DNA of 64,000 bases from Escherichia coli. GTDB lineage: Bacteria > Pseudomonadota > Gammaproteobacteria > Enterobacterales > Enterobacteriaceae. The position numbers were made by a program, and so were the translations under genes. The DNA lies in assembly GCF_013122565.1 (NCBI RefSeq), contig NZ_CP053258.1. The stretch is one strand, 5' to 3'. This document shows, one piece after another, positions 1 to 44,226 of this stretch (position 1 is the stretch's first letter; each line of letters opens with the position of its first letter). The notes below the pieces were generated by a model that saw only the letters and a list, made by a program, of their open reading frames with translations, was not told the origin of the DNA and did not search any database.

Positions 1-277
1 GAGGGATTTACAGACCAGCGGCATAGTGGGGTTGTCAGCCAGTAAGGTGGGATACAGGCACAGTGATCGACATGGTGAGGTCAACGACAAAAAAAATGTT
101 GCCGTTCTGCCAACAGTTCCTGCCAGCATTCGGGCAACGAAGGGTTCTACTGGTGGATACACATACCAGGGGAATAAAGTCGTTTTAGCCTCTCCTTTAG
201 TAATCACCGGGGGTAATGAAATCAGCATCTGCATCCCTCGTCATGCCAGCCATCAATTTCAGTTGCTTATGTCCTGA

Positions 278-4643: not shown

Positions 4644-5210
4644 TTATTTGACCAGCTCAGGTGTTACCTGACTCACTGCATTGGTGTAGTAAGGCACGCC
4701 CCAGCCCGGTTCCGGCCAGAATGCACCATAGCCGTAATCCCACAGGTTATAGGTGGTATTAACCACTTCTCTCAAATGCCACACCTGGATGCCCTGCATA
4801 TTCACTTCCAGGAAGTTATACGGGACTTTATTGATAAAGCCAGGTTGTTCACCCTGAATGGTGCCGAGGATGGTAACAAAGTGATTACGATAGTTCACTG
4901 GATCAAGGAAGCCGCTTTGTCTGGCGAGCAGTCGGCCCTGATAGTTGGCTTCAATATCAGGCTTCGCATAGCTATCCAACGGTAATACAGCGATTTCTAA
5001 CAACGTATCCGTTTTGCCATTGATAACGTTGATAACCTTCCCACCAAAGCGCGCTTGTTGACCAACATATAACCCCGGCTGGTTATGAACAGCAACAAAA
5101 CTTTTTTGAATATCAGGTTGGTTATTGCCTTTGATATTTTGCGGAATTGAACTACATGCGGCAAGCAAAAATGAAAGGCTGAGGATGAGTGCACCTTTTG
5201 TCATGTTCAT
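4644..5210 (-). CDS. slp: Starvation-inducible outer membrane lipoprotein Slp (188 aa from MNMTKGALILSLSFLLAAC)
   Basis: Lipoprotein signal with lipobox LLAAC; matches Slp. Confidence 0.85.
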   Translation of the reverse strand: MNMTKGALILSLSFLLAACSSIPQNIKGNNQPDIQKSFVAVHNQPGLYVGQQARFGGKVINVINGKTDTLLEIAVLPLDSYAKPDIEANYQGRLLARQSGFLDPVNYRNHFVTILGTIQGEQPGFINKVPYNFLEVNMQGIQVWHLREVVNTTYNLWDYGYGAFWPEPGWGVPYYTNAVSQVTPELVK

Positions 5211-5457
5211 GTTACTATCCTTATCAACAAATATTAAAACCATAATAGATATTTCTTTATAGTTTTCATCTGATTCTGAGGCGATATGCCTGATAGTAAC
5301 GTAAACCTGTCTGATGTTTATATCCTTTCTATTTAGGTGAACTCAGTTAATTTTGGGGCATGACATGAGTATCCATCGCCCCATAATATAGCGCTTTGTT
5401 TTAAAAATACATAAAATCTATTTTTATTCAATGATCATAAAGTACTAATGTTAAACA

Positions 5458-6681
5458 TTATGGTATTATATTCTGATAATGATTTGATAAGCGAATTCTT
5501 TTGCCTGTTGGTATTTCTATTTCCACCCCATAATTTATATCTTTTTCATTAGGGAGTGGCCTCTTTAAATATGGAGTGTGTGACATTTTTTTTGGGTTAA
5601 GCGTCTCGTATTGAAATACTTCGAATTGATATTCAGACATTTCTGCCCATGTTTGAATTTTATTGTATCGAGAAAGTGTCGTAAAGGCTTTAACTTGCTT
5701 ATAACATTCTTTTTTGAATTCTTGCTGATATTTTAATATGTTGTTGTATGAAAGATTGGTTATCCTGGCCTCTAAAAATTTAATTATTGTCGAAGCAATT
5801 TCCGCTTTTGCTCGTAAAAAGTTGTCATTAATGGTTAATAATGTTGAAAATAAACCTTCGATTTGTTTGTCAATATATTGTTCATCTTTATGTGATTTGG
5901 GGGTAGGGTGTTCCTTATGTGAAAAAATAGTGTCACATAAATTTGCGTCAGTGAAATTAATATTAAGTAGATCTTCGAAATAAAACCTTGACAAGGTCAG
6001 AACGAACCCGGACAGGTTCTGTCCTGTCATATTGAAATCAATAAAGTTGGTTCCGGCAAAGACTTTCATCCTGTTTTTATTTTCACTGTGCTCAAGATAT
6101 AACTTCGTCATTTTTTGATACAGACTTTGAATATCTTTTATATTAGTTGGTAAGTCAGCTCGTTGTTCAGCAATAAAATTAGTATCTGAAAACATGGTTT
6201 GGACACAGAATGTTATGGGTATTCCCTCTTCTACGCTAATTTTAGTTATGATTGCCTTGTCGGGTTTAGGATTAGCGACAACAATGATTCGACATTCAGC
6301 ACTTTTGTTCTTTTCGTATCTAATGTTACTAATTTGATTAAGTATTTCCTGTGCCTGCCGCGTAGGTGGTGTCGAACTTATCGATTCAATGTTAGTAATA
6401 AGACTTACAAGTTGAGCCACAACTTTGGAGTAGTCTGCATTTGTATATTTGGTGTTCGTGCGGCACGCATAAATTTGTGGGAGGTGTTGCCGCGCTAAAT
6501 CATATTGTTTAGGGTTGTATCCTTCTCCAGAGAATGTGGAATTAATGGGTTGTTGTTCTTCCCGATTATCACAAGGCCACATCGGTGTGTCTGGTGTTTT
6601 AACATTGTCGGTATCTGTTGTGCGGTTATAAATATCGCCGTGATATGTATTTATCATACCTGGGGTAAAGTCAATTGACAT
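5458..6681 (-). CDS. yhiS: Uncharacterized protein YhiS, intact 407-aa form
   Basis: Position between slp and arsC, where K-12 carries yhiS interrupted by IS5; long uninterrupted AT-rich ORF; no IS5 sequence here. Confidence 0.6.
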
Positions 6682-7139
6682 AACATTCCTTATTTGTGAT
6701 CTATTTCGCTAAATTTTTGTAAATAGGAGAATTAGAGCAGGAATGTATTTTCTTCTACGCAGAAATAAACATAATGCGTCATATCTTCCTGATATAATTA
6801 CCTTTGACTTCCCTTTTATCTCCACCCGGTAATATTTGTGTATAAAAAAGGGTATTGATAGTATCGTAAAGGAAAACGTTAACAACTATCAAAAAGCGCT
6901 CATTTTAAAAAGTTATGATGTTCTCCGATAGTGTGTGAAGTGATATTTTTGTGATGTTTTAGATGTGTAATAATAAAATGGGTTAAGGTATCTTATAATT
7001 ATTGAATAATTTGTTGTGTAAAGCACTGATAAATCATAATCCAGTACGTCTTTAAACTGCTGCACTGTATCGCTGATAACTAAGCAGCTCATTGATACAC
7101 CATGCTGGACGCGATAATTGGAATCTCACGCAGGGAGTA

Positions 7140-7265
7140 ATGTGTAAATAGCAAAATCGCCTGATGCGCTACGCCTGTCAGGCCTACAAATAACATACAA
7201 TTAATTGAATTTTCATCACTTTGTAGGTCGGATAAGACGCGCCAGCGTCGCATCCGACATAAATA
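7140..7265. repeat. REP/BIME-type palindromic units in the yhiS-arsC intergenic
   Basis: gcctgatgcgctacgcctgtcaggcctaca and gtaggtcggataagacgcgccagcgtcgcatccgaca are typical enterobacterial REP sequences. Confidence 0.75.
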
Positions 7266-7306
7266 AAGCGCACTTTTCTAACAACCTGTGGGGGGATATA
7301 GCCGCT

Positions 7307-7732
7307 TTATTTCAGGCGATTACCCGCTTCATCAACCACTTTCTCGCCGTCTTCCTTGGTGAACGCGCCTTGTTGCGCATCTGGCAGAATTTCCAGCACC
7401 ACTTCTGAAGGGCGGCACAGGCGAGTTCCCAGCGGCGTCACCACAATCGGGCGATTAATCAGAATCGGGTGCTGAAGCATAAAGTCGATTAACCGATCGT
7501 CAGTAAATTTATCTTCTGCAAGGCCCAGTTCCTCATACGGCTCGACGTTTTTACGCAGCAGCGCGCGTACGGTAATCCCCATATCGGCAATCAGTTTGAC
7601 CAGTTCATCACGCGTCGGTGGGGTTTCCAGATAATAGACAATGGTCGGTTCTGTGCCGCTGTTGCGGATCATCTCCAGCGTATTTCGCGATGTGCCGCAG
7701 GCCGGGTTGTGATAAATGGTAATGTTGCTCAT
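7307..7732 (-). CDS. arsC: Arsenate reductase ArsC (141 aa)
   Basis: Translation MSNITIYHNPACGTSRNTLEMIRN... with catalytic Cys in the CGTSR motif. Confidence 0.9.
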   Translation of the reverse strand: MSNITIYHNPACGTSRNTLEMIRNSGTEPTIVYYLETPPTRDELVKLIADMGITVRALLRKNVEPYEELGLAEDKFTDDRLIDFMLQHPILINRPIVVTPLGTRLCRPSEVVLEILPDAQQGAFTKEDGEKVVDEAGNRLK

Positions 7733-7744
7733 ATCAATATCTCA

Positions 7745-9034
7745 TTACAAAGTGAAAGAGAGACGTAGCGCCAGCGCAGCCAGCGTCACAAACAGCACAG
7801 GCAGGGTCATGATAATCCCTGTACGGAAGTAATATCCCCAGCTGATAGTCATATTCTTCTGCGAAAGTACGTGCAGCCAGAGTAGCGTTGCCATGCTACC
7901 AATTGGGGTAATTTTCGGTCCCAAATCGCAGCCAATCACGTTGGCATAAACCATCGCTTCTTTGATAACGCCAGATGCCGTGCTGCCATCAATGGACAAT
8001 GCGCCAACCAGTACCGTCGGCATATTGTTCATAATAGAAGAGAGGAAGGCGGTAAGGAATCCGGTGCCGAGCGTCGCGGCCCACAGGCCGTTATCCGCCA
8101 GCACGTTGAGTACGCCAGAAAGATATTCCGTTAACCCGGCATTGCGCAGGCCATAAACCACCAGATACATGCCGAGCGAGAAGATGACAATCTGCCAGGG
8201 CGCACCGCGCAGCACTTTACCCGTATTAATCGCATGACCGCGTTTAGCGACGACAAATAATATCAGCGCACCCACTGCCGCAATGGCGCTGACCGGAATG
8301 CCGAGCGGTTCCAGGACGAAAAATCCCACCAGCAGAAGCAGTAAAACAACCCAGCCAGTTTTGAACGTAGCAGGATCTTTAATCGCTTCTGCGGGAGATT
8401 TCAGCAGCGCCATGTCGTAGTTCTGCGGAATATCTTTGCGGAAATAGAGATGCAGCATCATCAGCGTGGCAACAATTGCGGCGATATCCACCGGCACCAT
8501 CACCGAGGCATATTCGCGAAAGCCGAGGCCAAAGAAATCTGCGGAAACGATATTCACCAGGTTGGAGACAATAAGTGGCAGGCTGGCGGTATCGGCAATG
8601 AATCCGGCCGCCATCACGAACGCCAGCGTCGTGCCTTTACTGAACCCTAAAGCCAGCAGCATAGCGATGACAATCGGTGTCAAAATAAGCGCCGCGCCAT
8701 CATTGGCAAACAGGGCGGCAACGGCGGCACCGAGCAGGACAATCCAGGTAAACAGCAAGCGACCACGACCATTACCCCAGCGTGAGACGTGCAGCGCCGC
8801 CCATTCAAAAAAGCCGGACTCATCCAGCAGCAGGCTGATGATAATGACGGCAATAAACGCAGCCGTCGCGTTCCAGACGATATTCCACACCACCGGAATA
8901 TCACCCGGATGAACCATGCCCGTAATTAACGCCAGAACTGCGCCGAGCGTTGCACTCCAGCCGATGCCTAAACCTTTCGGCTGCCAGATAACCAATACGA
9001 TGGTCAGGACAAAGATAGCGCCTGCCAGTAACAT
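7745..9034 (-). CDS. arsB: Arsenite efflux pump ArsB (429 aa from [13 protein letters not shown] track extends 7 codons further upstream)
   Basis: Polytopic membrane protein matching ArsB; operon arsRBC. Confidence 0.9.
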
Positions 9035-9441: not shown

Positions 9442-9591
9442 ATTGCGCTCCTGATTGTTGCAGGTAGTGTCTCTCTTCGAAGCGGATAAGTCAAAAACAT
9501 ATATGTTTTAACGAATGCGTATGTGCAGAGAAAGGTAATAGATGTGAGTTAAGAGTTGGGTATTTATTGGAAAAGACCTGAATCAGGACGT

Positions 9592-9620
9592 AAAAAAACC
9601 GACTTTGCGTCGGTTTTTTA
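9592..9620. terminator. Bidirectional rho-independent terminator-like hairpin (A-run, ccgac-ttt-gcg-tcgg stem, T-run)
   Basis: aaaaaaaccgactttgcgtcggtttttta: GC stem flanked by A7 and T6, so it can terminate on either strand. Confidence 0.6.
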
Positions 9621-9736
9621 CTTTCCAGCCCTGAGTTGGTGGCTCTGGCTGGAGTGAGATAGTCATCATCTAACGCATCAATGCTAATACCATACTGAAA
9701 CTATTGCAAGGACGTGCTGGTTTTATAACCCGCAAG

Positions 9737-9756: not shown

Positions 9757-9831
9757 AGCTCTGAGACATTTTCACTCTGGCAATGCGCTTGACATCCTCC
9801 ACGCCCTGAATGACGAGGATCCCTGCTACGT

Positions 9832-11040
9832 TCAGGCTGTCGCCTGAATCATTTCGGTGGGTTCCTGCTTCAACGAGCGGCCTGACTGCACCCTCTCTCC
9901 ACAGGCAAGAACGGCGTGCCCCGCCGCTAAAATGTTACGAGCGCCGTTTACATCGGCGTTCGCTGTATATCCACATACCTGGCATCTGAATTTACTTTGT
10001 GACAGGCGGTTCTCTTTCGCTGTATGACCACAGTACGCGCAACGCTGGCTTGTATACGCTGGCGGAACAGCAAGCACCTGACCGCCACGCCAGAGCTGCT
10101 TGTACTCAAGCTGGCGGCGCATTTCATACCAGCCCTGATCCAGTATCGAACGGTTTAAACCTGATTTTGCCCGGACATTGCGCCCCGGCTGGCTGACCGT
10201 ACCCGCTGCTGACTTTGACATGTTGCTGACCTTCAAATCCTCAATGACTATCATTGCGTGGTTTTTGCTGACGGTCGTTGTGACTTTGTGAAGGTAGTCC
10301 CTGCGGATATTTGCGATACAGGAATGCAGTCGCTGTATTTTGCGTTTCTGCTTCTGCCAGTTGTTGCTGAATTTGACCCTGCGGCTTAACTGTCGCTGAA
10401 GTCTCGCCAGCGTCTTCTGGTTTTTCTGAAAACTGTTTACAGGCTCAAAGACTGTGCCATCTGACAGCGTGGCGAGTTTAGCCACGCCAGCATCCAGCCC
10501 GACCATTGATGCTGAAGGGTGAACCGGAGTGGATACTTCACTTTCTGTCTGAATACTGATGTACCACTTACCGCAGGACTGGCTGACAGTGACATTTTTC
10601 ACAACTCCCGTGACCTGACGGCTATTCCGGTAGCGCATCCAGCCCAGTTTCGGCAGAAAAATACGGCTGTTTTCCTGATCGAGCTTAACGCCCTGCGGGT
10701 AGCGGAATGCATCATCCTGTCCCCGCTTTTTGAATCGGGGAAAAGCAGCCCGCTTCCGGAAGAAGTTTTTGTAAGCCCGCTCAAGGTCTTTCAGTGACTG
10801 TTGCAATGGCTGTGAGGGCGAATCTTTAAGCCATTGCGTTTCAGTGGCGTTTTTCCACTCAACCAACCAGGAAGCCATTTTCCCGTAAGGGATGTATTTA
10901 TTACCGGCCTCATGATTCTCATTCTGACGTGCCAGAGCACGATTGAAAACGAAACGACATGCGCCTGCGAAGCGCCTAATTTCACGCTCCTGTTGACCAC
11001 CGGGCCTTAACTGGAATTTAAATGCCTGTAGTCGTTTCAC
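9832..11040 (-). CDS. tnpB: IS605-family TnpB/OrfB (RuvC-like nuclease with C-terminal zinc finger, 402 aa)
   Basis: Translation has the OrfB_IS605 layout, including the C-terminal CxxC...CxxC zinc ribbon (CAYCGH...CQVCGY) followed by [10 protein letters not shown]. Confidence 0.8.
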
Positions 11041-11047
11041 AGGTCAA

Positions 11048-11514
11048 ATGATACTTTGGTCTGTGAAAAAAGAAACCGATATCCGGCGTGGAAGGCATTG
11101 TGTTTTCCTGATGCATGTTCACCTGGTCTTTGTCCCAAATACCGACGCCAGATTTTTGACCATGACGCGACAGAAAAACTACGCACTTACTTTTCAAATG
11201 TATGTGCTGATTTTGAAGCTGAACTGGTTGAAATGGATGGCGAACCAGATCACGTCCATTTGTTAATTAACTATCCTCCCAAACTGGCGATATCCAGTCT
11301 GGTAAACAGCCTCAAAGGCGTATCGGGTAGGTTACTGCGACGAGATCGACCAGATATTGCAGTCAGGTATTACTACAAAGGCGTTTTGTTGAGTCCTGGC
11401 TATTTTGCCAGTAGCTGCGGAGGTGCGCCAATATCCGTCATCCGCCAATACATTGAACAACAGCAAACACCTGGTCAGGTGGAAAACCGCGCCTTATATC
11501 CCCGCCCTGAATGA
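11048..11514 (+). pseudogene. tnpA: IS200-like Y1 (HuH) transposase TnpA, apparently disrupted by a -1 frameshift near codon 30
   Basis: N-terminal motif HCVFLMHVHLVFVP is in the frame starting at 11048; the rest (PKYRRQIF...HVHLLINYPPK...LKGVSGRLL) is in the frame starting at 11056; the shift is in an A-run (cccaaatac where cccaaaatac is expected) around 11137-11142. Confidence 0.6.
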
Positions 11515-11535
11515 ACGGGGTTTTACGGCGCACCG

Positions 11536-11613
11536 GATAAAGCAATCATCGTTCTTGGGGCGTTAATTGCGCTGCTGGAACTGCTCCGCTTTCTGCTTCA
11601 GCTTCTGAACTGA
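11536..11613 (+). pseudogene. dinQ: dinQ remnant: type I toxin peptide coding sequence (…DKAIIVLGALIALLELLRFLLQLLN) lacking its own start codon and directly abutting the IS right end
   Basis: In-frame translation up to the stop at 11611-11613 matches the DinQ hydrophobic peptide as recalled (K-12 MIDKAIIVLGALIALLELIRFLLQLLN); no ATG/GTG precedes DKAII here. Confidence 0.6.
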
Positions 11614-11666: not shown

Positions 11667-13019
11667 TTAACGCATTGTCACGAACTCTTCTGCCGCCGTT
11701 GGGTGAATGGCGACGGTATTGTCGAAGTCTTTTTTGGTTGCGCCCATCTTCAGCGCCACCGCGAAGCCCTGCAACATTTCGTCCATACCAAAGCCAATGC
11801 CGTGAATACCGACAATCTTCTCTTCTGGCCCAACGCACACCAGCTTCATGCGGCACGGCTGGCGGTGAGTGGTGACGGCGGTATACATCGCGGTGAAAGA
11901 GGATTTATACACTTTCACCTGATCGTCGCCGTACTGCTCGCGCGCCTGCGGTTCCGTTAAACCAACAGTACCAATCGGCGGATGGCTGAAGACCACGGTC
12001 GGAATGTTGCTGTAATCCAGATGCTCATCCGGCTTGTTATTAAACAGGCGTTCAGAGAGGCGGCGACCCGCTGCAACTGCCACCGGTGTCAGTTCTACTG
12101 CACCCGTGTTATCGCCCACCGCGTAAATACCTTCAATGTTGGTGTTTTGATATTTATCGACGACGATATAGCCTTTTTCGTTGGTTTTAACGCCAGCGGC
12201 TTCGAGGTTGATGTTGTCATTGGCAGGCTCGCGACCAATCGCCCAAATCAGGCAATCCACCGTTTCACTGCGACCATCTTCCAGCTCCAGCGTCAGGCTA
12301 CCATCGGCATTTTTCACTACCGCTTTCGGGATGGCGTTGGTGTGCAACTGCGAGCCTTCGGCGTTCATCACTTCGACCAGCGTTTCAGAGATCATCGGGT
12401 CGAAGCTGCGCAGCGGCGCATGTTTACGCACAAACAGATGCGTTTTCGCGCCGAGGCCGTTAATCACGCCCGCCAGCTCAACGGCGATGTAACCCGCGCC
12501 AACAACCGCCACGCGCTCTGGCAAAGCAGGAAGGGCGAAGAAGCCATCAGAATCAATACCGTATTCCACGCCCGGAATATCCGGGTGGCTCGGACGACCG
12601 CCGGTGGCGATCAGAATATGATCGGCCGTGATGGTTTCACCGTTAACTTCCAGCGTTTTGGCATCAACGAAGCGGGCAAAGCCTTTGATTACATCAACGT
12701 TATTTTTACCGAGCACGTTTTCATAGGAAGTATGAATACGGTCGATATAGGCGGTACGGCTGGCGATCAACGTTTCCCAGTTGAATTTATTGATCGTGGT
12801 ATCGAAACCATAATCCGGACCGTACATGTGGATCGCTTCACGGATTTGCGCCGCGTGCCACATCACTTTCTTCGGTACGCAGCCGACGTTCACGCAGGTG
12901 CCGCCCAGCTCTTTGGCTTCAATCAGCGCGCATTTCTGACCGTACATAGCCGCGCGGTTGATGGAGGCAATACCGCCGCTGCCGCCGCCGATGGCGATGT
13001 AATCATAGTGTTTAGTCAT
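11667..13019 (-). CDS. gor: Glutathione reductase Gor (450 aa)
   Basis: FAD-binding GGGSGG N-terminus, redox-active [10 protein letters not shown] motif; full-length match to Gor. Confidence 0.95.
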
Positions 13020-13090
13020 GACAGAGTGTCCTTATCGTTGATTACCGCGATTGTAGCGCGAGACGTAATAGGTGCCAGCGATGGCTGCAA

Positions 13091-13933
13091 TTACTCCGGC
13101 ACGATCCAGCTTACGGTGGCGTGCCCGGTGCCAGCCGGAACCAGTTTGCTGTGCAGCCACGGCAGCACGTTATTCATCTGCTGTTCCAGCTTCCACGGCG
13201 GGTTAATCACAATCATGCCGGAAGCGGTCATGCCACGGCGATCGCTGTCTGGCAGTACCGCCAGTTCAATTTGCAGAATTTTGCGAATGCCAGTCGCTTC
13301 CAGGTCGTGGATCATGCGCTTAATTTGCTGACGCAGCACCACTGGATACCACAATGCGTAAGTGCCAGTGGCGAAACGTTTGTAGCCTTCTGCTATCCCG
13401 CTGACCACCGCCTGATAGTCGATTTTCATTTCATACGGCGGGTCGATAAGGATTAAACCACGGCGGGAAACCGGCGGCAGCTTGGCTTTAAGCTGCTGGA
13501 AACCGTCGGCTTTTTCCACGCGTGCGCGGCTGTCTTTCTGAAATTCAGAACGCAGCAACGGGTAATCGCTCGGGTGCAGTTCGGTCAGTTGCAGGCTGTC
13601 CTGTTCACGCAGTAACTGACGAGCAATCAACGGCGAACCGGGGTAGTAACGCAACTGACCGCTACGGTTGAAGTGTTTTACCACATTGATGTACGGCTCA
13701 AGCTCCGCAGGCAAATCGTCCTGCTGCCAGATACGGGCGATACCTTCGAGATATTCGCCGGTACGCTCGGCATGTTCGCTGCCTAACTGATAACGCCCGG
13801 CCCCTGCGTGGGTATCGAGATAGAGAAACGGTTTATCTTTCTCTTTCAGCGACTCGATGATCAGGCTCTGAACGGTATGTTTAAGGACGTCGGCGTGGTT
13901 GCCAGCGTGAAAGCTGTGGCGATAACTGAGCAT
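13091..13933 (-). CDS. rlmJ: 23S rRNA m6A2030 methyltransferase RlmJ/YhiR (280 aa from MLSYRHSFHAGN)
   Basis: Translation matches RlmJ; synteny between gor and prlC. Confidence 0.85.
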   Translation of the reverse strand: MLSYRHSFHAGNHADVLKHTVQSLIIESLKEKDKPFLYLDTHAGAGRYQLGSEHAERTGEYLEGIARIWQQDDLPAELEPYINVVKHFNRSGQLRYYPGSPLIARQLLREQDSLQLTELHPSDYPLLRSEFQKDSRARVEKADGFQQLKAKLPPVSRRGLILIDPPYEMKIDYQAVVSGIAEGYKRFATGTYALWYPVVLRQQIKRMIHDLEATGIRKILQIELAVLPDSDRRGMTASGMIVINPPWKLEQQMNNVLPWLHSKLVPAGTGHATVSWIVPE

Positions 13934-14040
13934 GGGTAAAGGTGTTCCGGTAAGTAAAAATCGGCCCGTATTCGGGGCGCACAAAAGTCTATCAGGACAG
14001 TATACCGAAAAGAGGCCGCCGCCGCGAAAGCGTAACGTTT

Positions 14041-14073
14041 CTCATTGAAATTCACTACACTTAACCCCATGCT
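14041..14073 (+). promoter_or_regulatory. sigma32 heat-shock promoter of prlC
   Basis: CTCATTGAAA -N14- CCCCATGCT matches the sigma32 consensus (CTTGAAA ... CCCCATNT), about 65 bp upstream of the prlC start. Confidence 0.6.
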
Positions 14074-14135
14074 ACACACATTATGTAAAGCGCCTGTTGA
14101 GCGCTTCCTTAACCTCTTTAACCAGGACTGCGCTA

Positions 14136-16178
14136 ATGACGAATCCGTTACTGACTCCCTTTGAATTGCCTCCGTTTTCTAAAATTCTCCCGGAACATGT
14201 CGTTCCAGCCGTGACTAAGGCATTGAACGACTGCCGCGAAAACGTGGAGCGCGTAGTAGCGCAAGGGGCACCGTACACCTGGGAAAATCTCTGCCAGCCG
14301 TTGGCGGAAGTGGACGATGTGCTGGGGCGTATCTTCTCCCCGATCAGCCACCTGAACTCGGTGAAAAATAGCCCGGAACTGCGTGAAGCGTACGAACAAA
14401 CCCTGCCGCTGCTGTCGGAATACAGCACCTGGGTAGGGCAACATGAAGGGCTGTATAAAGCGTATCGCGACCTGCGCGATGGCGATCATTACGCCACGCT
14501 GAACACGGCGCAGAAGAAAGCGGTTGATAACGCACTGCGCGACTTTGAACTCTCTGGCATCGGTCTGCCGAAAGAGAAACAGCAGCGTTACGGCGAAATT
14601 GCTACCCGTCTTTCTGAACTGGGCAACCAGTACAGCAACAACGTCCTCGACGCGACGATGGGCTGGACCAAACTCGTTACCGACGAAGCGGAACTGGCGG
14701 GAATGCCTGAAAGCGCGCTGGCTGCGGCAAAAGCCCAGGCTGAAGCGAAAGAGCTGGAAGGCTACCTGCTGACGCTGGATATCCCAAGCTACCTGCCGGT
14801 AATGACCTACTGCGACAACCAGGCTCTGCGCGAAGAGATGTATCGTGCTTACAGCACCCGCGCTTCCGATCAAGGTCCGAACGCCGGTAAGTGGGACAAC
14901 AGCAAGGTGATGGAAGAGATCCTCGCGCTGCGTCACGAACTGGCGCAACTGCTGGGCTTTGAAAACTACGCCTTTAAATCCCTTGCCACTAAAATGGCAG
15001 AAAACCCGCAGCAGGTGCTTGATTTCTTAACCGATCTGGCAAAACGCGCGCGTCCGCAAGGTGAAAAAGAGCTGGCGCAACTGCGTGCCTTCGCTAAAGC
15101 CGAATTTGGCGTGGATGAGTTGCAGCCGTGGGATATCGCGTACTACAGCGAAAAACAAAAACAGCACCTCTACAGCATCAGTGACGAACAGCTGCGTCCG
15201 TACTTCCCGGAAAACAAAGCGGTTAACGGCCTGTTTGAAGTGGTTAAGCGTATTTACGGCATCACCGCTAAAGAGCGTAAAGATGTTGATGTCTGGCATC
15301 CGGATGTACGTTTCTTCGAACTGTATGACGAGAACAACGAACTGCGCGGTAGCTTCTACCTCGACCTGTATGCCCGTGAAAACAAGCGCGGCGGGGCGTG
15401 GATGGATGACTGCGTAGGCCAGATGCGCAAAGCTGACGGTTCTCTGCAAAAACCGGTCGCGTATCTGACCTGTAACTTTAACCGCCCGGTAAATGGTAAA
15501 CCGGCGCTGTTCACTCACGACGAAGTGATCACCCTGTTCCACGAGTTCGGTCACGGCCTGCACCATATGCTGACCCGCATTGAAACCGCCGGTGTTTCCG
15601 GGATCAGCGGGGTGCCGTGGGATGCGGTCGAACTGCCGAGTCAGTTTATGGAAAACTGGTGCTGGGAGCCGGAGGCGCTGGCGTTTATCTCCGGACACTA
15701 TGAAACCGGCGAACCGCTGCCGAAGGAGCTGCTGGATAAAATGCTGGCGGCGAAGAACTACCAGGCGGCGCTGTTTATTCTGCGCCAGCTGGAGTTCGGC
15801 CTGTTCGATTTCCGCCTCCATGCCGAGTTCCGCCCGGATCAGGGAGCGAAAATCCTCGAAACTCTGGCAGAAATCAAGAAACTGGTTGCCGTAGTACCGT
15901 CTCCATCCTGGGGCCGTTTCCCGCATGCTTTCAGCCATATTTTCGCCGGTGGTTATGCCGCAGGTTACTACAGCTACCTGTGGGCCGACGTGCTGGCGGC
16001 AGATGCCTTCTCGCGCTTTGAGGAAGAGGGCATTTTCAACCGTGAAACCGGGCAGTCGTTCCTCGACAACATTCTGAGCCGTGGCGGTTCAGAAGAGCCG
16101 ATGGATCTGTTCAAACGCTTCCGTGGTCGTGAACCGCAGCTGGATGCGATGCTGGAGCATTACGGCATTAAGGGCTGA
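14136..16178 (+). CDS. prlC: Oligopeptidase A PrlC/OpdA (M3 zinc metallopeptidase, 680 aa from [10 protein letters not shown])
   Basis: HEFGH zinc-binding motif ([13 protein letters not shown]); full-length similarity to OpdA. Confidence 0.95.
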
Positions 16179-39898: not shown

Positions 39899-40486
39899 TC
39901 AGTTAACTGAATCGATCCATTGCACACTGTCGGCGGTGAGCGTAAAGGGAGTAGGGGTGCAGATCGCCAGGCTTAAATTTTCTAGCTGACAATGGCTGAC
40001 TGACAGCGAGGAGTGATAGGTGCTGTCTACGCTGACGATTTGCCAGGCGCTGCCACCACGCTGTTTAACGATGGCTTCTTTGCGCGTCCAGATGCGCCAG
40101 AACATTTCCAGTTGCTGATCAGGATGCACGGCGTCCATCTCAGCGTGTTCCCCGAGGCTGAATACGGCGTTCGCCAGCCAGCGCCAGTTGGCGCGCGGGC
40201 GAATCACTTCGATATCGCAGCCGACTTCGCCTTCATCGCTCAACAGCAGGGCGATATCGTCACCGCTATGGCTTAAGTTGAACCATAGCGGCGTTTCCGG
40301 CGCGAATGCCGGTTTGCCTTGTTCGCCATAGATGATCTCCGGTAGCGGGGAAAGCGTGTGCGAAAGCAATGCACGCCCCGCCAGCCAGCGTTCGCGTCGT
40401 GGACCTTGCGGTGCTTGCTCGCGTAAACCCGGTGGCAGTGGAGCTGCGCTTAAGGTCGAAACTTTCCCCAGAACTATCCGATACAT
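39899..40486 (-). CDS. acpT: 4'-phosphopantetheinyl transferase AcpT/YhhU (195 aa)
   Basis: Translation matches AcpT; synteny next to nikA. Confidence 0.85.
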   Translation of the reverse strand: MYRIVLGKVSTLSAAPLPPGLREQAPQGPRRERWLAGRALLSHTLSPLPEIIYGEQGKPAFAPETPLWFNLSHSGDDIALLLSDEGEVGCDIEVIRPRANWRWLANAVFSLGEHAEMDAVHPDQQLEMFWRIWTRKEAIVKQRGGSAWQIVSVDSTYHSSLSVSHCQLENLSLAICTPTPFTLTADSVQWIDSVN

Positions 40487-40540
40487 ATCAGGGCCAACGT
40501 ATAATGGAAAATGAAAGTGCGTATCGTATCACTTGTCGCC

Positions 40541-41590
40541 TCATCCCGGTAACCGACTTTTCGGTCTGCCCGGTCCCAGTAAAATCGCCAGTTTGCTACC
40601 GCCTTTCGTAGTTTCCATCCAGATTTTACACACGCTGGTTAATGGCACCGAAAGTAGCATCCCTACCGGGCCGAGCAGCCATCCCCAAATTAACAATGAA
40701 AGAAATACCACCATGGTGGACATCCCCAGGCGATGGCCCATCATCCGTGGCTCTAAAATATTGCCGATGACCATATGGACAACTAAAAACAATGCGCCGA
40801 CCAGAATACATTCGTAAATACCATTAAACAGCAGCACCTGAATCATTGGCGGTACGGCGGAAATTACCGCGCCGATATTAGGCACGTAGTTGAGCAAAAA
40901 CGCCAGTACTGCCCACATCAGCGCAAACTGCACCCCCATCAGCTCCAGCCCCAGCCAGACGATGACACCCGTCCATAAACTGAGTAGCGTCTTTAACGCC
41001 AGATAATGCGAAACGCCTTTAAGTGCGCGGTGTAATCCCGCGATGTGAATCTGTGGGTTATTCAGCGCAAAACGCATTTTGTAAGGGACGTGGCGCACTT
41101 CAAACAGCATAAAAACTACGGTCATCACCAGCAGAATTACGCTCGCCATTGCCCCGGAAAGCCCGGTCATTAGCGCCGTGGTGAAGGTAACCACTTTTTC
41201 CGAGTCCATCCGCTGCAGCATTCGCTCTGGCGACATATGCAAATTAAGAAAAGGCAACATCTCCTGCAATTTAAAAAGTTTGCGCGTCAGCTCCTTATTA
41301 AACTTCGGCAGCATAGAGATAAATTCGTTAAACGATGCCGCCAGTACGCCAACCAGCGCGGTTAGTGCGATCAGCATCACCACCACCACAATCGTAATGG
41401 CAACGGGGCGTTTTACTCCCCGTCGAACAAACCAGGTAACGAGCGGGTTGAGGACGATGGCAAAAAACAGCGCCAGTAACAGCTGCACAATGATATCTGC
41501 CGCTGCGTGAATGCCCGCGAGGATCACTACCAGCGAGGCCAGCTTGAGCAGAATGTGCATGCCCGTTTTATCGGGTTGAGGGGTTTCCAT
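40541..41590 (-). CDS. yhhT: AI-2E (UPF0118) family transporter YhhT (349 aa from METPQPDKTG)
   Basis: Polytopic membrane protein; synteny. Confidence 0.8.
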   Translation of the reverse strand: METPQPDKTGMHILLKLASLVVILAGIHAAADIIVQLLLALFFAIVLNPLVTWFVRRGVKRPVAITIVVVVMLIALTALVGVLAASFNEFISMLPKFNKELTRKLFKLQEMLPFLNLHMSPERMLQRMDSEKVVTFTTALMTGLSGAMASVILLVMTVVFMLFEVRHVPYKMRFALNNPQIHIAGLHRALKGVSHYLALKTLLSLWTGVIVWLGLELMGVQFALMWAVLAFLLNYVPNIGAVISAVPPMIQVLLFNGIYECILVGALFLVVHMVIGNILEPRMMGHRLGMSTMVVFLSLLIWGWLLGPVGMLLSVPLTSVCKIWMETTKGGSKLAILLGPGRPKSRLPG

Positions 41591-41709
41591 TGGGGCTTCC
41601 TTGTGACTTTTTGTATTAAGTGTAGCGGGAGTCACGCCAGCAATATTCTGATTCTTACTGCTGATTTTCACGTCAGCACGTGGTAAAAATGAAACACTGT
41701 TGTAAAAAT

Positions 41710-42927
41710 GTGGTGATCCTCATGCCCGAACCCGCGCTAAACGGATTGCGCCTGAATTTGCGCATTGTCTCCATTGTCATGTTTAACTTCGCCAGCTACC
41801 TCACTATCGGGTTGCCGCTCGCTGTATTACCGGGCTATGTCCATGATGTGATGGGCTTTAGCGCTTTCTGGGCAGGAGTGGTTATCAGCCTGCAATATTT
41901 CGCCACCTTGCTGAGCCGCCCTCATGCCGGACGTTACGCCGATTTGCTGGGACCCAAAAAGATTGTCGTCTTCGGTTTATGCGGCTGCTTTTTGAGCGGT
42001 CTGGGATATCTGACGGCAGGATTAACCGCCAGTCTGCCCGTCATCAGCCTGTTATTACTTTGCCTGGGACGCGTCATCCTTGGGATTGGGCAAAGTTTTG
42101 CCGGAACGGGATCGACCCTGTGGGGCGTTGGCGTGGTTGGCTCGCTGCATATCGGGCGGGTGATTTCGTGGAACGGCATTGTCACTTACGGGGCGATGGC
42201 GATGGGTGCGCCGTTAGGTGTCGTGTTTTATCACTGGGGCGGCTTGCAGGCGTTAGCGTTAATCATTATGGGCGTGGCGCTGGTGGCCATTTTGTTGGCG
42301 ATCCCGCGTCCGACGGTAAAAGCCAGTAAAGGCAAACCGCTGCCGTTTCGCGCGGTGCTTGGGCGTGTCTGGCTGTACGGTATGGCGCTGGCACTGGCTT
42401 CCGCCGGATTTGGCGTTATCGCCACCTTTATCACGCTGTTTTATGACGCTAAAGGTTGGGACGGTGCGGCTTTCGCGCTGACGCTGTTTAGCTGTGCGTT
42501 TGTCGGTACGCGTTTGTTATTCCCTAACGGCATTAACCGTATCGGCGGCTTAAACGTAGCGATGATTTGCTTTAGCGTTGAGATAATCGGCCTGCTACTG
42601 GTTGGCGTGGCGACTATGCCGTGGATGGCGAAAATCGGCGTCTTACTGGCGGGGGCAGGGTTTTCGCTAGTGTTCCCGGCATTGGGCGTAGTGGCGGTAA
42701 AAGCGGTTCCACAGCAAAATCAGGGGGCGGCGCTGGCAACTTACACCGTATTTATGGATTTATCGCTTGGCGTGACCGGACCACTGGCTGGGCTGGTGAT
42801 GAGCTGGGCGGGCGTCCCGGTGATTTATCTGGCGGCGGCGGGACTGGTCGCAATCGCGTTATTACTGACGTGGCGATTAAAAAAACGGCCTCCGGAACAC
42901 GTCCCTGAGGCCGCCTCATCATCTTAA
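41710..42927 (+). CDS. yhhS: MFS transporter YhhS (about 405 aa, probable GTG start)
   Basis: 12-TM MFS-type translation; synteny. Confidence 0.8.
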   Translation: MVILMPEPALNGLRLNLRIVSIVMFNFASYLTIGLPLAVLPGYVHDVMGFSAFWAGVVISLQYFATLLSRPHAGRYADLLGPKKIVVFGLCGCFLSGLGYLTAGLTASLPVISLLLLCLGRVILGIGQSFAGTGSTLWGVGVVGSLHIGRVISWNGIVTYGAMAMGAPLGVVFYHWGGLQALALIIMGVALVAILLAIPRPTVKASKGKPLPFRAVLGRVWLYGMALALASAGFGVIATFITLFYDAKGWDGAAFALTLFSCAFVGTRLLFPNGINRIGGLNVAMICFSVEIIGLLLVGVATMPWMAKIGVLLAGAGFSLVFPALGVVAVKAVPQQNQGAALATYTVFMDLSLGVTGPLAGLVMSWAGVPVIYLAAAGLVAIALLLTWRLKKRPPEHVPEAASSS

Positions 42928-42930
42928 AAC

Positions 42931-43488
42931 TTACTGAATAACCAGCGTATTAATGATGTTTTCTGCGGTGGTCTGCGCTTTTTGCTGATCATCAGCTGGC
43001 AGAGTAATTTGCATGGTCAGCAGTTGATTACCCACGTTACCCAGAATAACGGAAGAGTACGCCGTCTGGCCTTTCGCGGAGATAATACTGTCTAACTGCT
43101 GCATTTTGTGACCTTTCAGCTCAATGGCTTTATTGGTTACCACTTGCAGCTGCGGATCGCGGCTACGTTGCTGATCTTCCAGACGCTTCGCCAGCACCGC
43201 CAGATCTTCTTTCGGATCATCGCCCATGATGACGATGACTGCTTTCTGCCCGGTGGCGTCGGACCAGACATGCATGTTATTGGCCTGCGTTCCCAGCTTA
43301 CCGCTCTGGTCGGTCATATCCGCTGGCAGCGAGAAACTTAACTTGCCATCAAGCAGGTTGACGGGATTCCCGGTAGCGTTACTTTCCGCGACCGAACCCT
43401 GCGCCGTAGCGTTAGTGTCTTTATCATCACAGGCCGCAAGCCCCATAACCAGCAGGCCAATTCCGACATATTTAACCAGATTGCGCAT
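42931..43488 (-). CDS. dcrB: Periplasmic lipoprotein DcrB (185 aa from [20 protein letters not shown])
   Basis: Lipobox LAAC; matches DcrB. Confidence 0.85.
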
Positions 43489-43560
43489 TGACTTCTTCCT
43501 TTCGATAAACGGCCATAACGGCTCATTCATCCATCTTATCACAACTCTGATAACGAACCT

Positions 43561-44226
43561 TTAACTCGCCTGCAAAGCGTTGATTTCGGATTTATCTGCC
43601 AGTCTTTTCAACAGCATATTGAGTAATACGCCATACATTGGCAGGAAGAAAACGATACTGATTAACACTTTGAAACAGTAATCGACCAGCGCGATTTCCA
43701 TCCAGTGTTCAGCCATAAAGGCATCCGGGCTACGCCAGAAGGCAATGAAGAAAAAGGCCAGCGTGTCGCTGACGTTACCGAACAGTGTGGACGCTGTCGG
43801 TGCCAGCCACCAGCGGCGACTCTGACGCAGGCGGTTAAAAACGTGCACGTCGAGGATCTGTCCCAGCGCGTAGGCCATGAAACTGGCGGTGGCGATACGG
43901 GCGACAAACAGGTTGAAGTGGGCGAGTGCGCCGAATCCCTGCCATGAACCCATATAGAATAGCGACGAGATGACGTAGGAGATCAGCAATGCCGGGATCA
44001 TCACCGCAAAGATGATACGACGGGCCAGCGGTGCGCCAAAAATACGTACGGTCAGGTCGGTAGCGAGAAAGATAAACGGAAAGCTAAACGCGCCCCAGGT
44101 GGTATGGAAACCAAAAATGGAGACGGGAAGCTGAACCAGATAGTTACTGGAGGTGATCACCAGCAGATGAAATAACGATAACCAGAACAACGCCTTATAG
44201 CGTTGAGTTTGCGAGAAAACGTTCAT
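43561..44226 (-). CDS. yhhQ: Queuosine-precursor transporter YhhQ (221 aa)
   Basis: Hydrophobic membrane protein; synteny. Confidence 0.85.
   Translation of the reverse strand: MNVFSQTQRYKALFWLSLFHLLVITSSNYLVQLPVSIFGFHTTWGAFSFPFIFLATDLTVRIFGAPLARRIIFAVMIPALLISYVISSLFYMGSWQGFGALAHFNLFVARIATASFMAYALGQILDVHVFNRLRQSRRWWLAPTASTLFGNVSDTLAFFFIAFWRSPDAFMAEHWMEIALVDYCFKVLISIVFFLPMYGVLLNMLLKRLADKSEINALQAS

Follow-up and report, generated by a model that had tools for sequence, protein, structure and literature searches.

An uninterrupted yhiS allele in the window

In the 64-kb stretch of Escherichia coli DNA analyzed here (contig NZ_CP053258.1; hereafter the window), an open reading frame (ORF) at 5458–6681 on the minus strand is, as judged by alignment, the ortholog of yhiS of E. 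coli K-12, and a copy of the insertion element IS5 is the sole lesion recognized in the K-12 gene. Confidence is high, though short of certainty, in the identity, ancestry, coding status, and dispensability of the window gene as described below. The ORF appears to be an intact pre-insertion allele, located immediately beyond slp at the margin of the acid fitness island, and the K-12 copy would be a derived form, broken by IS5 entering a CTAA target in codons 248–249. The gene is dispensable, with five or more independent inactivations among E. coli strains. In substance this finding is already known and ordinary, as it describes the common non-K-12 state of yhiS.

The ORF listing revealed a single uninterrupted frame of 407 codons plus a stop at 5458–6681, starting with ATG and containing 0 in-frame stops, in agreement with the intact 407-residue gene claimed in the sequence-only reading. 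A Shine-Dalgarno-like AAGGA, read from the sequence, is located 5 nt 5' of the ATG (6687–6691, minus strand). The GC content of the ORF is 35.0%, compared with 51.8% in the remaining window. Mononucleotide shuffles of the 1,221 nt contained a mean of 28.5 in-frame stops, and the remaining five frames of the real sequence hold 18–45 stops each. With 28.5 stops expected at 35.0% GC and not one open frame among 20,000 shuffles, the 407-codon frame is not attributable to chance.

In the annotation of the K-12 locus (L001), yhiS (b3504, UniProt P37635) consists of two pseudogene fragments, yhiS_1 and yhiS_2, which flank the IS5 transposase gene (insH) between slp and arsC, just as the sequence-only reading had stated. 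The K-12 junctions read ...GTCACCTAA|IS5|CTAAATTTGCG, with an element of 1,195 bp and the CTAA, which lies inside codons 248–249, duplicated at both sides. In BLAST analysis, the window and K-12 sequences were collinear throughout the locus except for IS5 and the duplicated CTAA, and the in silico removal of IS5 and one CTAA from the K-12 sequence gave an open frame of exactly 407 codons. This IS5-removed yhiS aligned with the window ORF over its full length of 1,224 nt without gaps, at 94.6% nucleotide and 90.9% amino-acid identity (37 amino-acid differences), which refutes the possibility, raised together with the initial claim, that the ORF is unrelated to yhiS.

The two copies thus share locus, orientation, and, after IS5 removal, a length of 407 codons, whereas the 1,195-bp element and its CTAA duplication are found in K-12 only. 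At the counterpart of the insertion site (5937–5940), which was located from the junction sequences and IS5 boundaries, the window reads ATAA rather than CTAA; the K-12 target tetranucleotide is missing because codon 249 is TGT (Cys) in the window and GGT (Gly) in K-12. The literature cited here on yhiS concerns the K-12 pseudogene throughout; IS5 sites are given there as CTAA/CTAG, and yhiS is among the eleven IS5 loci of BW25113 (PMC11677980). The reported absence of IS5 from the window was confirmed over its 64 kb by a BLAST search with K-12 IS5 plus short flanks, which matched the yhiS flanks alone, and by a search for the pattern of the IS5 ends, tolerating up to 3 mismatches, which gave 0 matches.

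The K-12 yhiS::IS5 junction was detected in 351 of 5,426 complete RefSeq E. coli genomes, a collection biased toward clinical and laboratory strains, and it was missing from all sampled non-K-12 alleles, including one at 61% protein identity. The IS5-bearing state is considered derived because of the target duplication, the frame restored by excision, and the limitation of the junction to these 351 genomes, and the view that the window strain retains the ancestral form is supported accordingly.

Intact and inactivated copies across E. coli

Among the 5,426 genomes, at least 80% of the yhiS ORF was present in one piece in 3,995. A 0.9-kb deletion junction, which removes the equivalent of window positions 5391–6302 and leaves the first ~379 nt, was found in 1,054. 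An initial conclusion from the count of 3,995, namely that intact copies form a large majority, was dropped, as translated sample copies showed many 1-nt frameshifts. For this sample, 30 genomes were taken at even spacing along the ranking, and each copy was classified and translated. Thirteen were open over 407 codons (~43%; Wilson 95% interval, ~27–61%), eight carried a frameshift or nonsense mutation, three an insertion sequence (IS5 in two and IS1 in one), and five the 0.9-kb deletion, while the locus was lacking in the remaining genome. An intact copy is therefore not special, with ~43% of an even sample carrying one.

The commonest frameshift is the loss of one T from a T7 tract at coding-sequence nt 755–761, which truncates the product to 281 aa. 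A linked synonymous CCA-to-CCC change in codon 364 is found in all eight sampled copies with this deletion at nt 761, which argues for a single origin of the deletion; recurrent slippage at nt 761 was considered and judged unlikely on account of the same linked change. In a second frameshift, one A is lost from the A-tract at nt 1089–1096, resulting in the 371-aa O157-type protein WP_001303709.1. Copies with the first frameshift have gained further lesions, including Q44* and two or three additional A residues in another tract (nt ~368–375). Homopolymer tracts varying among isolates (L011–L027) were A7/A9/A10 at nt ~368–375, T7/T6 at nt 755–761, and A8/A7/A6 at nt 1089–1096, corresponding to window positions 6307–6314, 5921–5927, and 5586–5593, respectively. 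In the window allele, the first tract is interrupted, the second is a T6 followed by C (T6 at nt 755–760, 5922–5927, minus strand; T7 in other alleles), and the third is a full A8 (codons 363–366, 5586–5593, minus strand), as revealed by allele comparison.

The window allele is free of all catalogued lesions (frameshifts, deletion, and insertion sequences). The truncated or lost states of yhiS (371-aa and 281-aa products, the remnant of the 0.9-kb deletion, and the IS1 insertion) are like the window copy in locus and ancestry, but they are inactivated. The window protein already exists in NCBI as an exact entry (WP_171460200.1/QJU26496.1) and belongs to the family of 407-aa YhiS "hypothetical proteins" found in thousands of E. 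coli and Shigella assemblies (e.g., WP_000020596.1). Within this family the window allele is rare: the closest match among complete genomes, from an O145:H28 strain, showed 97.5% nucleotide identity, and none reached 99% among complete RefSeq genomes.

Public annotation of the gene deserves caution. The Prokaryotic Genome Annotation Pipeline flags yhiS of O145 strain RM9873-C1 (L004) and of strain Res13-Sevr-PER07-33 (L024) as "frameshifted", ending 107 nt early. Compared with the window, neither copy contains an indel or stop, and both give a 407-aa translation; the pipeline appears to use the truncated 371-aa O157-type protein as its yhiS reference. Public pseudogene flags for yhiS are unreliable because these two "frameshifted" copies are actually open. 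In addition, the inspected strains with the 0.9-kb deletion (e.g., L002) were without arsR and arsB, with arsC directly followed by dinQ, and they carried chu haem-uptake genes beside dctR. The window has no chu operon between dctR and yhiD.

Selection, polymorphism, and mosaicism

Eight alleles were used for evolutionary analysis, namely the window allele, the IS5-removed K-12 allele, the O145 allele, and five more, with protein identities as low as 61%. The ratio of nonsynonymous to synonymous substitution rates (dN/dS, omega) was 0.25–0.49 over all allele pairs and 0.27–0.45 for pairs including the window. The raw ratio of nonsynonymous to synonymous differences (pN/pS) of the window pairs reached up to 0.49 and was below 1 in every window test (one-sided Fisher, P from 4e-4 to 6e-15). 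These results demonstrate that yhiS genuinely encodes a protein and evolves under relaxed purifying selection, and with ratios of 0.27–0.49, significantly below 1, the description of the window copy as "potentially functional" in the sequence-only reading is a fair one. Along the gene, pN/pS was 0.22–0.30 in residues 177–296, 0.33 at the extreme N-terminus, and 0.6–0.9 in residues 37–176 and 317–376. No 40-codon window of yhiS had a pN/pS above 0.88, giving no sign of positive selection. Alleles with identities as low as 75% still encode exactly 407 residues, and nearly all full-length homologs also have 407 aa.

By E. coli standards the polymorphism of yhiS is very high, and it far exceeds that of its neighbors on the island side. 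Over the same eight loci, the mean pairwise dS and dN were 0.31 and 0.11 for yhiS, 0.034 and 0.001 for slp, and 0.071 and 0.005 for dctR; unlike slp and dctR, yhiS is also often lost. Comparison of arsC with the window copy gave an intermediate dS of 0.14–0.32. Since the arsC dS is intermediate and the upstream neighbor of yhiS is itself polymorphic (see below), the variable segment extends from yhiS into the ars side. Block-wise identity further revealed that the alleles are mosaic, e.g., the window allele and that of locus L008 are 100% identical over nt 1–120 and 79% identical over nt 481–600. Distinct intact YhiS proteins in the sample differed by up to 25%.

An open frame could nevertheless be functionless, with yhiS being an H-NS-silenced orphan in slow neutral decay that has merely not been hit in the window lineage. 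This explanation is rather unlikely, but several observations favor it: 17 of the 30 sampled genomes have a damaged copy, with five or more independent kinds of lesion among them, further lesions (such as Q44* and A-tract insertions) accumulate in lineages already bearing the first frameshift, an omega of 0.3–0.5 is high, and no phenotype is known for this uncharacterised gene, with neither the Keio deletion nor overexpression from the ASKA clone changing the minimum inhibitory concentration of chlorhexidine (PMC8170033). Against decay, however, omega was significantly below 1 in every comparison, the 407-codon frame has stayed open at dS values up to 0.3–0.6 although ~28 random stops would be expected, and the constraint is uneven along the gene (pN/pS of 0.22–0.30 in residues 177–296 versus 0.6–0.9 elsewhere).

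A converse and doubtful proposal is that yhiS is not a decaying leftover at all, but that very old mosaic allele classes (at most 75% protein identity inside a single species, beside an almost invariant slp) are kept by long-term balancing or niche-specific selection while the gene is repeatedly discarded. If so, the short repeat surface proposed below for this Escherichia-only protein would interact with an external partner that itself varies (for example, a host factor, phage, or competitor), and intact alleles would mark strains that still use that interaction. The combination of constraint, extreme polymorphism, and loss in more than half of the strains is mildly interesting and may merit a population-genomic look.

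Relation to the acid fitness island and regulation

The gene lies immediately outside slp and hence outside the slp-to-gadA block. A comparison of Shiga toxin-producing E. coli set the island border at the "unknown gene Z4907" beside slp (PMC9729726), which we infer to be the yhiS ortholog from that position. Another paper lists yhiS with the acid fitness island (bioRxiv 10.1101/063271). Membership in the island, as assumed in the sequence-only reading, therefore depends on how the island is defined, being favored by this listing, the low GC content, and the restriction to Escherichia and Shigella, but disfavored by the location outside the slp-to-gadA block and the border drawn in the other paper. 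The statement that the AT-rich composition of yhiS matches the rest of the island holds in part: its GC content is indeed low, but at 35.0% yhiS is more AT-rich than the island genes (39–46%; 40.7% for the island part of the window).

Published data from K-12 indicate that this AT-rich locus is bound and silenced by H-NS and StpA and does not respond to YdeO. The yhiS locus is among the high-affinity StpA/H-NS sites (bioRxiv 10.64898/2026.02.10.705075), and overexpression of YdeO induced slp and dctR but not yhiS, with YdeO binding near slp/yhiS (PMC4222967). YhiS is probably made only in special conditions because of the H-NS/StpA silencing and the lack of a YdeO response. A mutation in the arsC/yhiS intergenic region has swept evolving K-12 populations, one control population among them (PMC6928379). 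A search with a GAD-box consensus gave 0 matches in the window, even beside known Gad-regulated genes, and is uninformative. Compared with the island genes (slp-dctR, yhiD, hdeBA, hdeD, and gadE), yhiS is likewise of low GC content, limited to Escherichia and Shigella, and bound by H-NS/StpA, and it is contiguous with them, but it is usually put beyond the border and is not YdeO-induced.

It is improbable, in light of these data, that yhiS is an island acid-resistance gene, co-regulated with slp-dctR and the Gad/Hde genes and aiding acid survival. It does adjoin slp-dctR co-directionally, with an island-like low GC content and a YdeO-bound region alongside (PMC4222967), and it has been listed with the island as mentioned above. 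However, YdeO raised slp and dctR without raising yhiS, the border has been set at the gene beside slp, and ~57% of the sampled genomes are without a working yhiS yet keep slp and dctR. Moreover, YhiS is unlike any acid-resistance protein in Pfam, family-library, and PDB profile searches.

The lack of IS5 at this locus has a practical consequence. The yhiS IS5 forms one end of spontaneous 14-kb and 16.4-kb island deletions (bioRxiv 10.1101/063271 and 10.1101/2023.11.30.569415), and K-12 derivatives delete 14–16 kb of the island from this element in laboratory evolution and strain engineering. Without the yhiS IS5, the window strain cannot lose the entire acid fitness island by the IS5-mediated route of K-12.

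Protein features and taxonomic range

YhiS lacks a signal peptide and membrane helices, with a maximum Kyte-Doolittle value (over 19 residues) of 1.02, and T, D, P, and N are abundant among its first 60 residues. From F208 to F253, ten consecutive pentads place L, F, or M at every fifth residue, preceded by N or D in 6 of the 10; a period-5 run of 10 was reached by only 9 of 20,000 shuffles (P ~4.5e-4). This pentapeptide-repeat-like segment (residues 206–255; 5917–6066, minus strand) also attracts weak profile matches. The Pfam family PF00805 (Pentapeptide) matched YhiS at E = 0.21 and 11.6 bits, under the cut-off of 20.2 bits, and a PDB profile search allowing E up to 10 gave the Rfr domain 2f3l (E = 0.005), TL15 3n90 (E = 0.2), and QnrB1 2xtx (E = 2.4), while the pentapeptide-repeat protein P0173 matched at E = 2.3e-4. 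All of these weak pentapeptide matches fall on residues 203–256, and this stretch is the most constrained part of yhiS (pN/pS of 0.22–0.30). No match to YhiS was found in NCBIfam, PHROGs, or PADLOC, so that it belongs to no curated family among these. An AlphaFold2 model based on a 32-sequence alignment was uninformative (mean predicted local distance difference test score, pLDDT, 33.7; predicted template modeling score, 0.30).

YhiS may comprise a T/N/D/P-rich N-terminus, a central alpha/beta part, a short beta-helix-like stretch of ten pentads, and a helical C-terminal third of ~150 residues. The IS5 of K-12 and the common frameshift each lie at the end of the repeat stretch, and each removes the C-terminal ~150 residues. 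Tentatively, YhiS could be a soluble protein of ~46 kDa that uses the short repeat module as a rigid macromolecule-binding surface. Like the pentapeptide-repeat proteins of PF00805, it has tandem pentads (ten) centered on L/F/M, in many cases just after N/D. Unlike them, it scores under the family threshold, its repeat covers only ~50 of 407 residues (~2.5 turns if a beta-helix), its flanking domains are without counterpart, and its beta-helix fold is putative.

The gene has a narrow distribution. A word-indexed search of 5.8 billion proteins returned 135 matches, all from E. coli/Shigella or unnamed metagenome sequences. When 1.84 billion cluster representatives were searched exhaustively with phmmer, one full-length YhiS cluster emerged, and no full-length relative outside the YhiS family; apart from YhiS fragments, the other matches were a single divergent fragment of 93 aa and a single pentapeptide-repeat protein unrelated to YhiS. 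In a GTDB scan with one genome per species, which relied on two exact peptide patterns, the sole match was a 409-bp contig at 0.77x coverage assigned to "Ensifer sp. MPMI2T" (L009, NZ_SRXN01000179.1). This contig encodes the last 93 YhiS residues at 96% identity and is almost certainly E. coli contamination of the Ensifer assembly. As far as these searches reach, yhiS is an orphan gene limited to Escherichia/Shigella; they yielded no outgroup copy, and its absence from other Escherichia species is suggested.

Pentapeptide repeats are also found in secreted effectors such as Salmonella PipB2 and the E. coli EspX proteins, and by analogy YhiS might be a relic or active type III secretion substrate of this kind. 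Such a role would suit an AT-rich, H-NS-bound, taxonomically restricted gene whose product has a short pentapeptide-like module and a well-conserved, T/N/D/P/I-rich N-terminus without a signal peptide, and high allelic diversity with repeated loss is common in host-interaction genes. We nevertheless regard it as very improbable. The structures of PipB2 and SopA have been solved, but the PDB profile search to E = 10 gave generic pentapeptide-repeat proteins only, with neither of these among the matches; furthermore, no 40-codon window exceeds a pN/pS of 0.88, which gives no sign of positive selection, and strains of diverse backgrounds carry intact alleles. Least credible of all is a phase-variable contingency gene switched by homopolymer-tract slippage. 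Three tracts do vary in length among isolates and two of them cause the common frameshifts, but the CCA-to-CCC change in codon 364 shared by all eight 761-deletion copies points to a single origin and inheritance rather than recurrent switching, tracts of at most 8 nt are short for efficient slippage, and frameshifted copies pick up further irreversible lesions.

The reading of the window ORF as an intact, ancestral, and constrained coding gene, with a product that may bear a repeat module, is the preferred one, and the following points weigh against it. Omega is high for E. coli and the frame is lost in more than half of the sampled genomes, so selection is weak at best. The intactness sample is small (30 genomes) and stems from a collection biased as stated above. 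For the protein, PF00805 gave a sub-threshold match in 29 of 32 alleles, with a best E of 0.037 over the 32, and never reached the Pfam threshold, and AlphaFold2 placed residues 206–255 in coil or helix at a pLDDT of 23–30, with no beta-helix. Finally, the cited experiments were all performed on the K-12 pseudogene and none on an intact allele; because of this, a functional study of yhiS needs an intact allele.

Neighboring genes and other features of the window

The gene order hdeB, yhiD, dctR, slp, yhiS, arsC, arsB, and arsR in the window is that of K-12 on the opposite strand. According to the ORF list and the K-12 annotation, yhiS is flanked by slp, its conserved downstream neighbor and comparator (4644–5210, minus strand), with which it is co-directional, and by arsC upstream (7307–7732, minus strand), confirming the location given in the sequence-only reading. 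Its orthologues are located between slp and either arsC or an alternative arsenic-type neighbor, and the window copy fits this pattern. In many strains (loci L003, L005, L007, L008, and L011), an ArsP-type permease with a divergent ArsR/SmtB regulator is located upstream of yhiS instead of arsC, and L008 has both arsenic-type gene sets.

The AT-rich arsC–yhiS intergenic region (6682–7306; 35.8% GC) is presumed to contain the yhiS promoter, and in alignments only its yhiS-proximal ~310 bp are common to strains with a different upstream neighbor. The yhiS–slp intergenic region (5211–5457; 29.6% GC) contains the slp-dctR control region. A scan for promoter-like sites gave 12 compared with 9.8 ± 3.6 by chance, i.e., no excess; no terminator-like hairpin 3' of yhiS was found in the scan of the yhiS–slp intergenic region, and Rfam gave no match in the yhiS locus.

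Further observations concern the window as a whole. Core genes at 12000–16000 and 40000–44000 had no match of at least 99% identity in any complete RefSeq E. coli genome, the best values being 97.9% for prlC-gor-rlmJ and 98.8% for yhhS-yhhQ. Because no core-gene match reaches 99%, the strain lineage is unrepresented in the complete RefSeq set. An element of the IS200/IS605 family occupies 9789–11535, with tnpB at 9832–11040 (minus strand), a tnpA-like ORF at 11056–11514 (plus strand), and the Pfam domains OrfB_IS605, Cas12f1-like TNB, and HTH. It is located between the AgrB antisense RNA (9590–9673) and the dinQ toxin gene (~11530–11613). K-12 has no insertion at this site, and a few E. coli (88-3493 and O169:H41 strains) carry this very element at the same site with 97.2% identity. 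Rfam recognized a single Agr-type RNA at 9580–9689 (AgrB, 108 bits), and the two tandem K-12 segments at ~8541–8650 and 8772–8880 of L001 both align to it; the window thus seems to have one agr copy compared with two in K-12. Moreover, the small RNA ES205 was identified by Rfam at 89–160 (minus strand), just beyond gadE, with 105 bits against a gathering score of 86.

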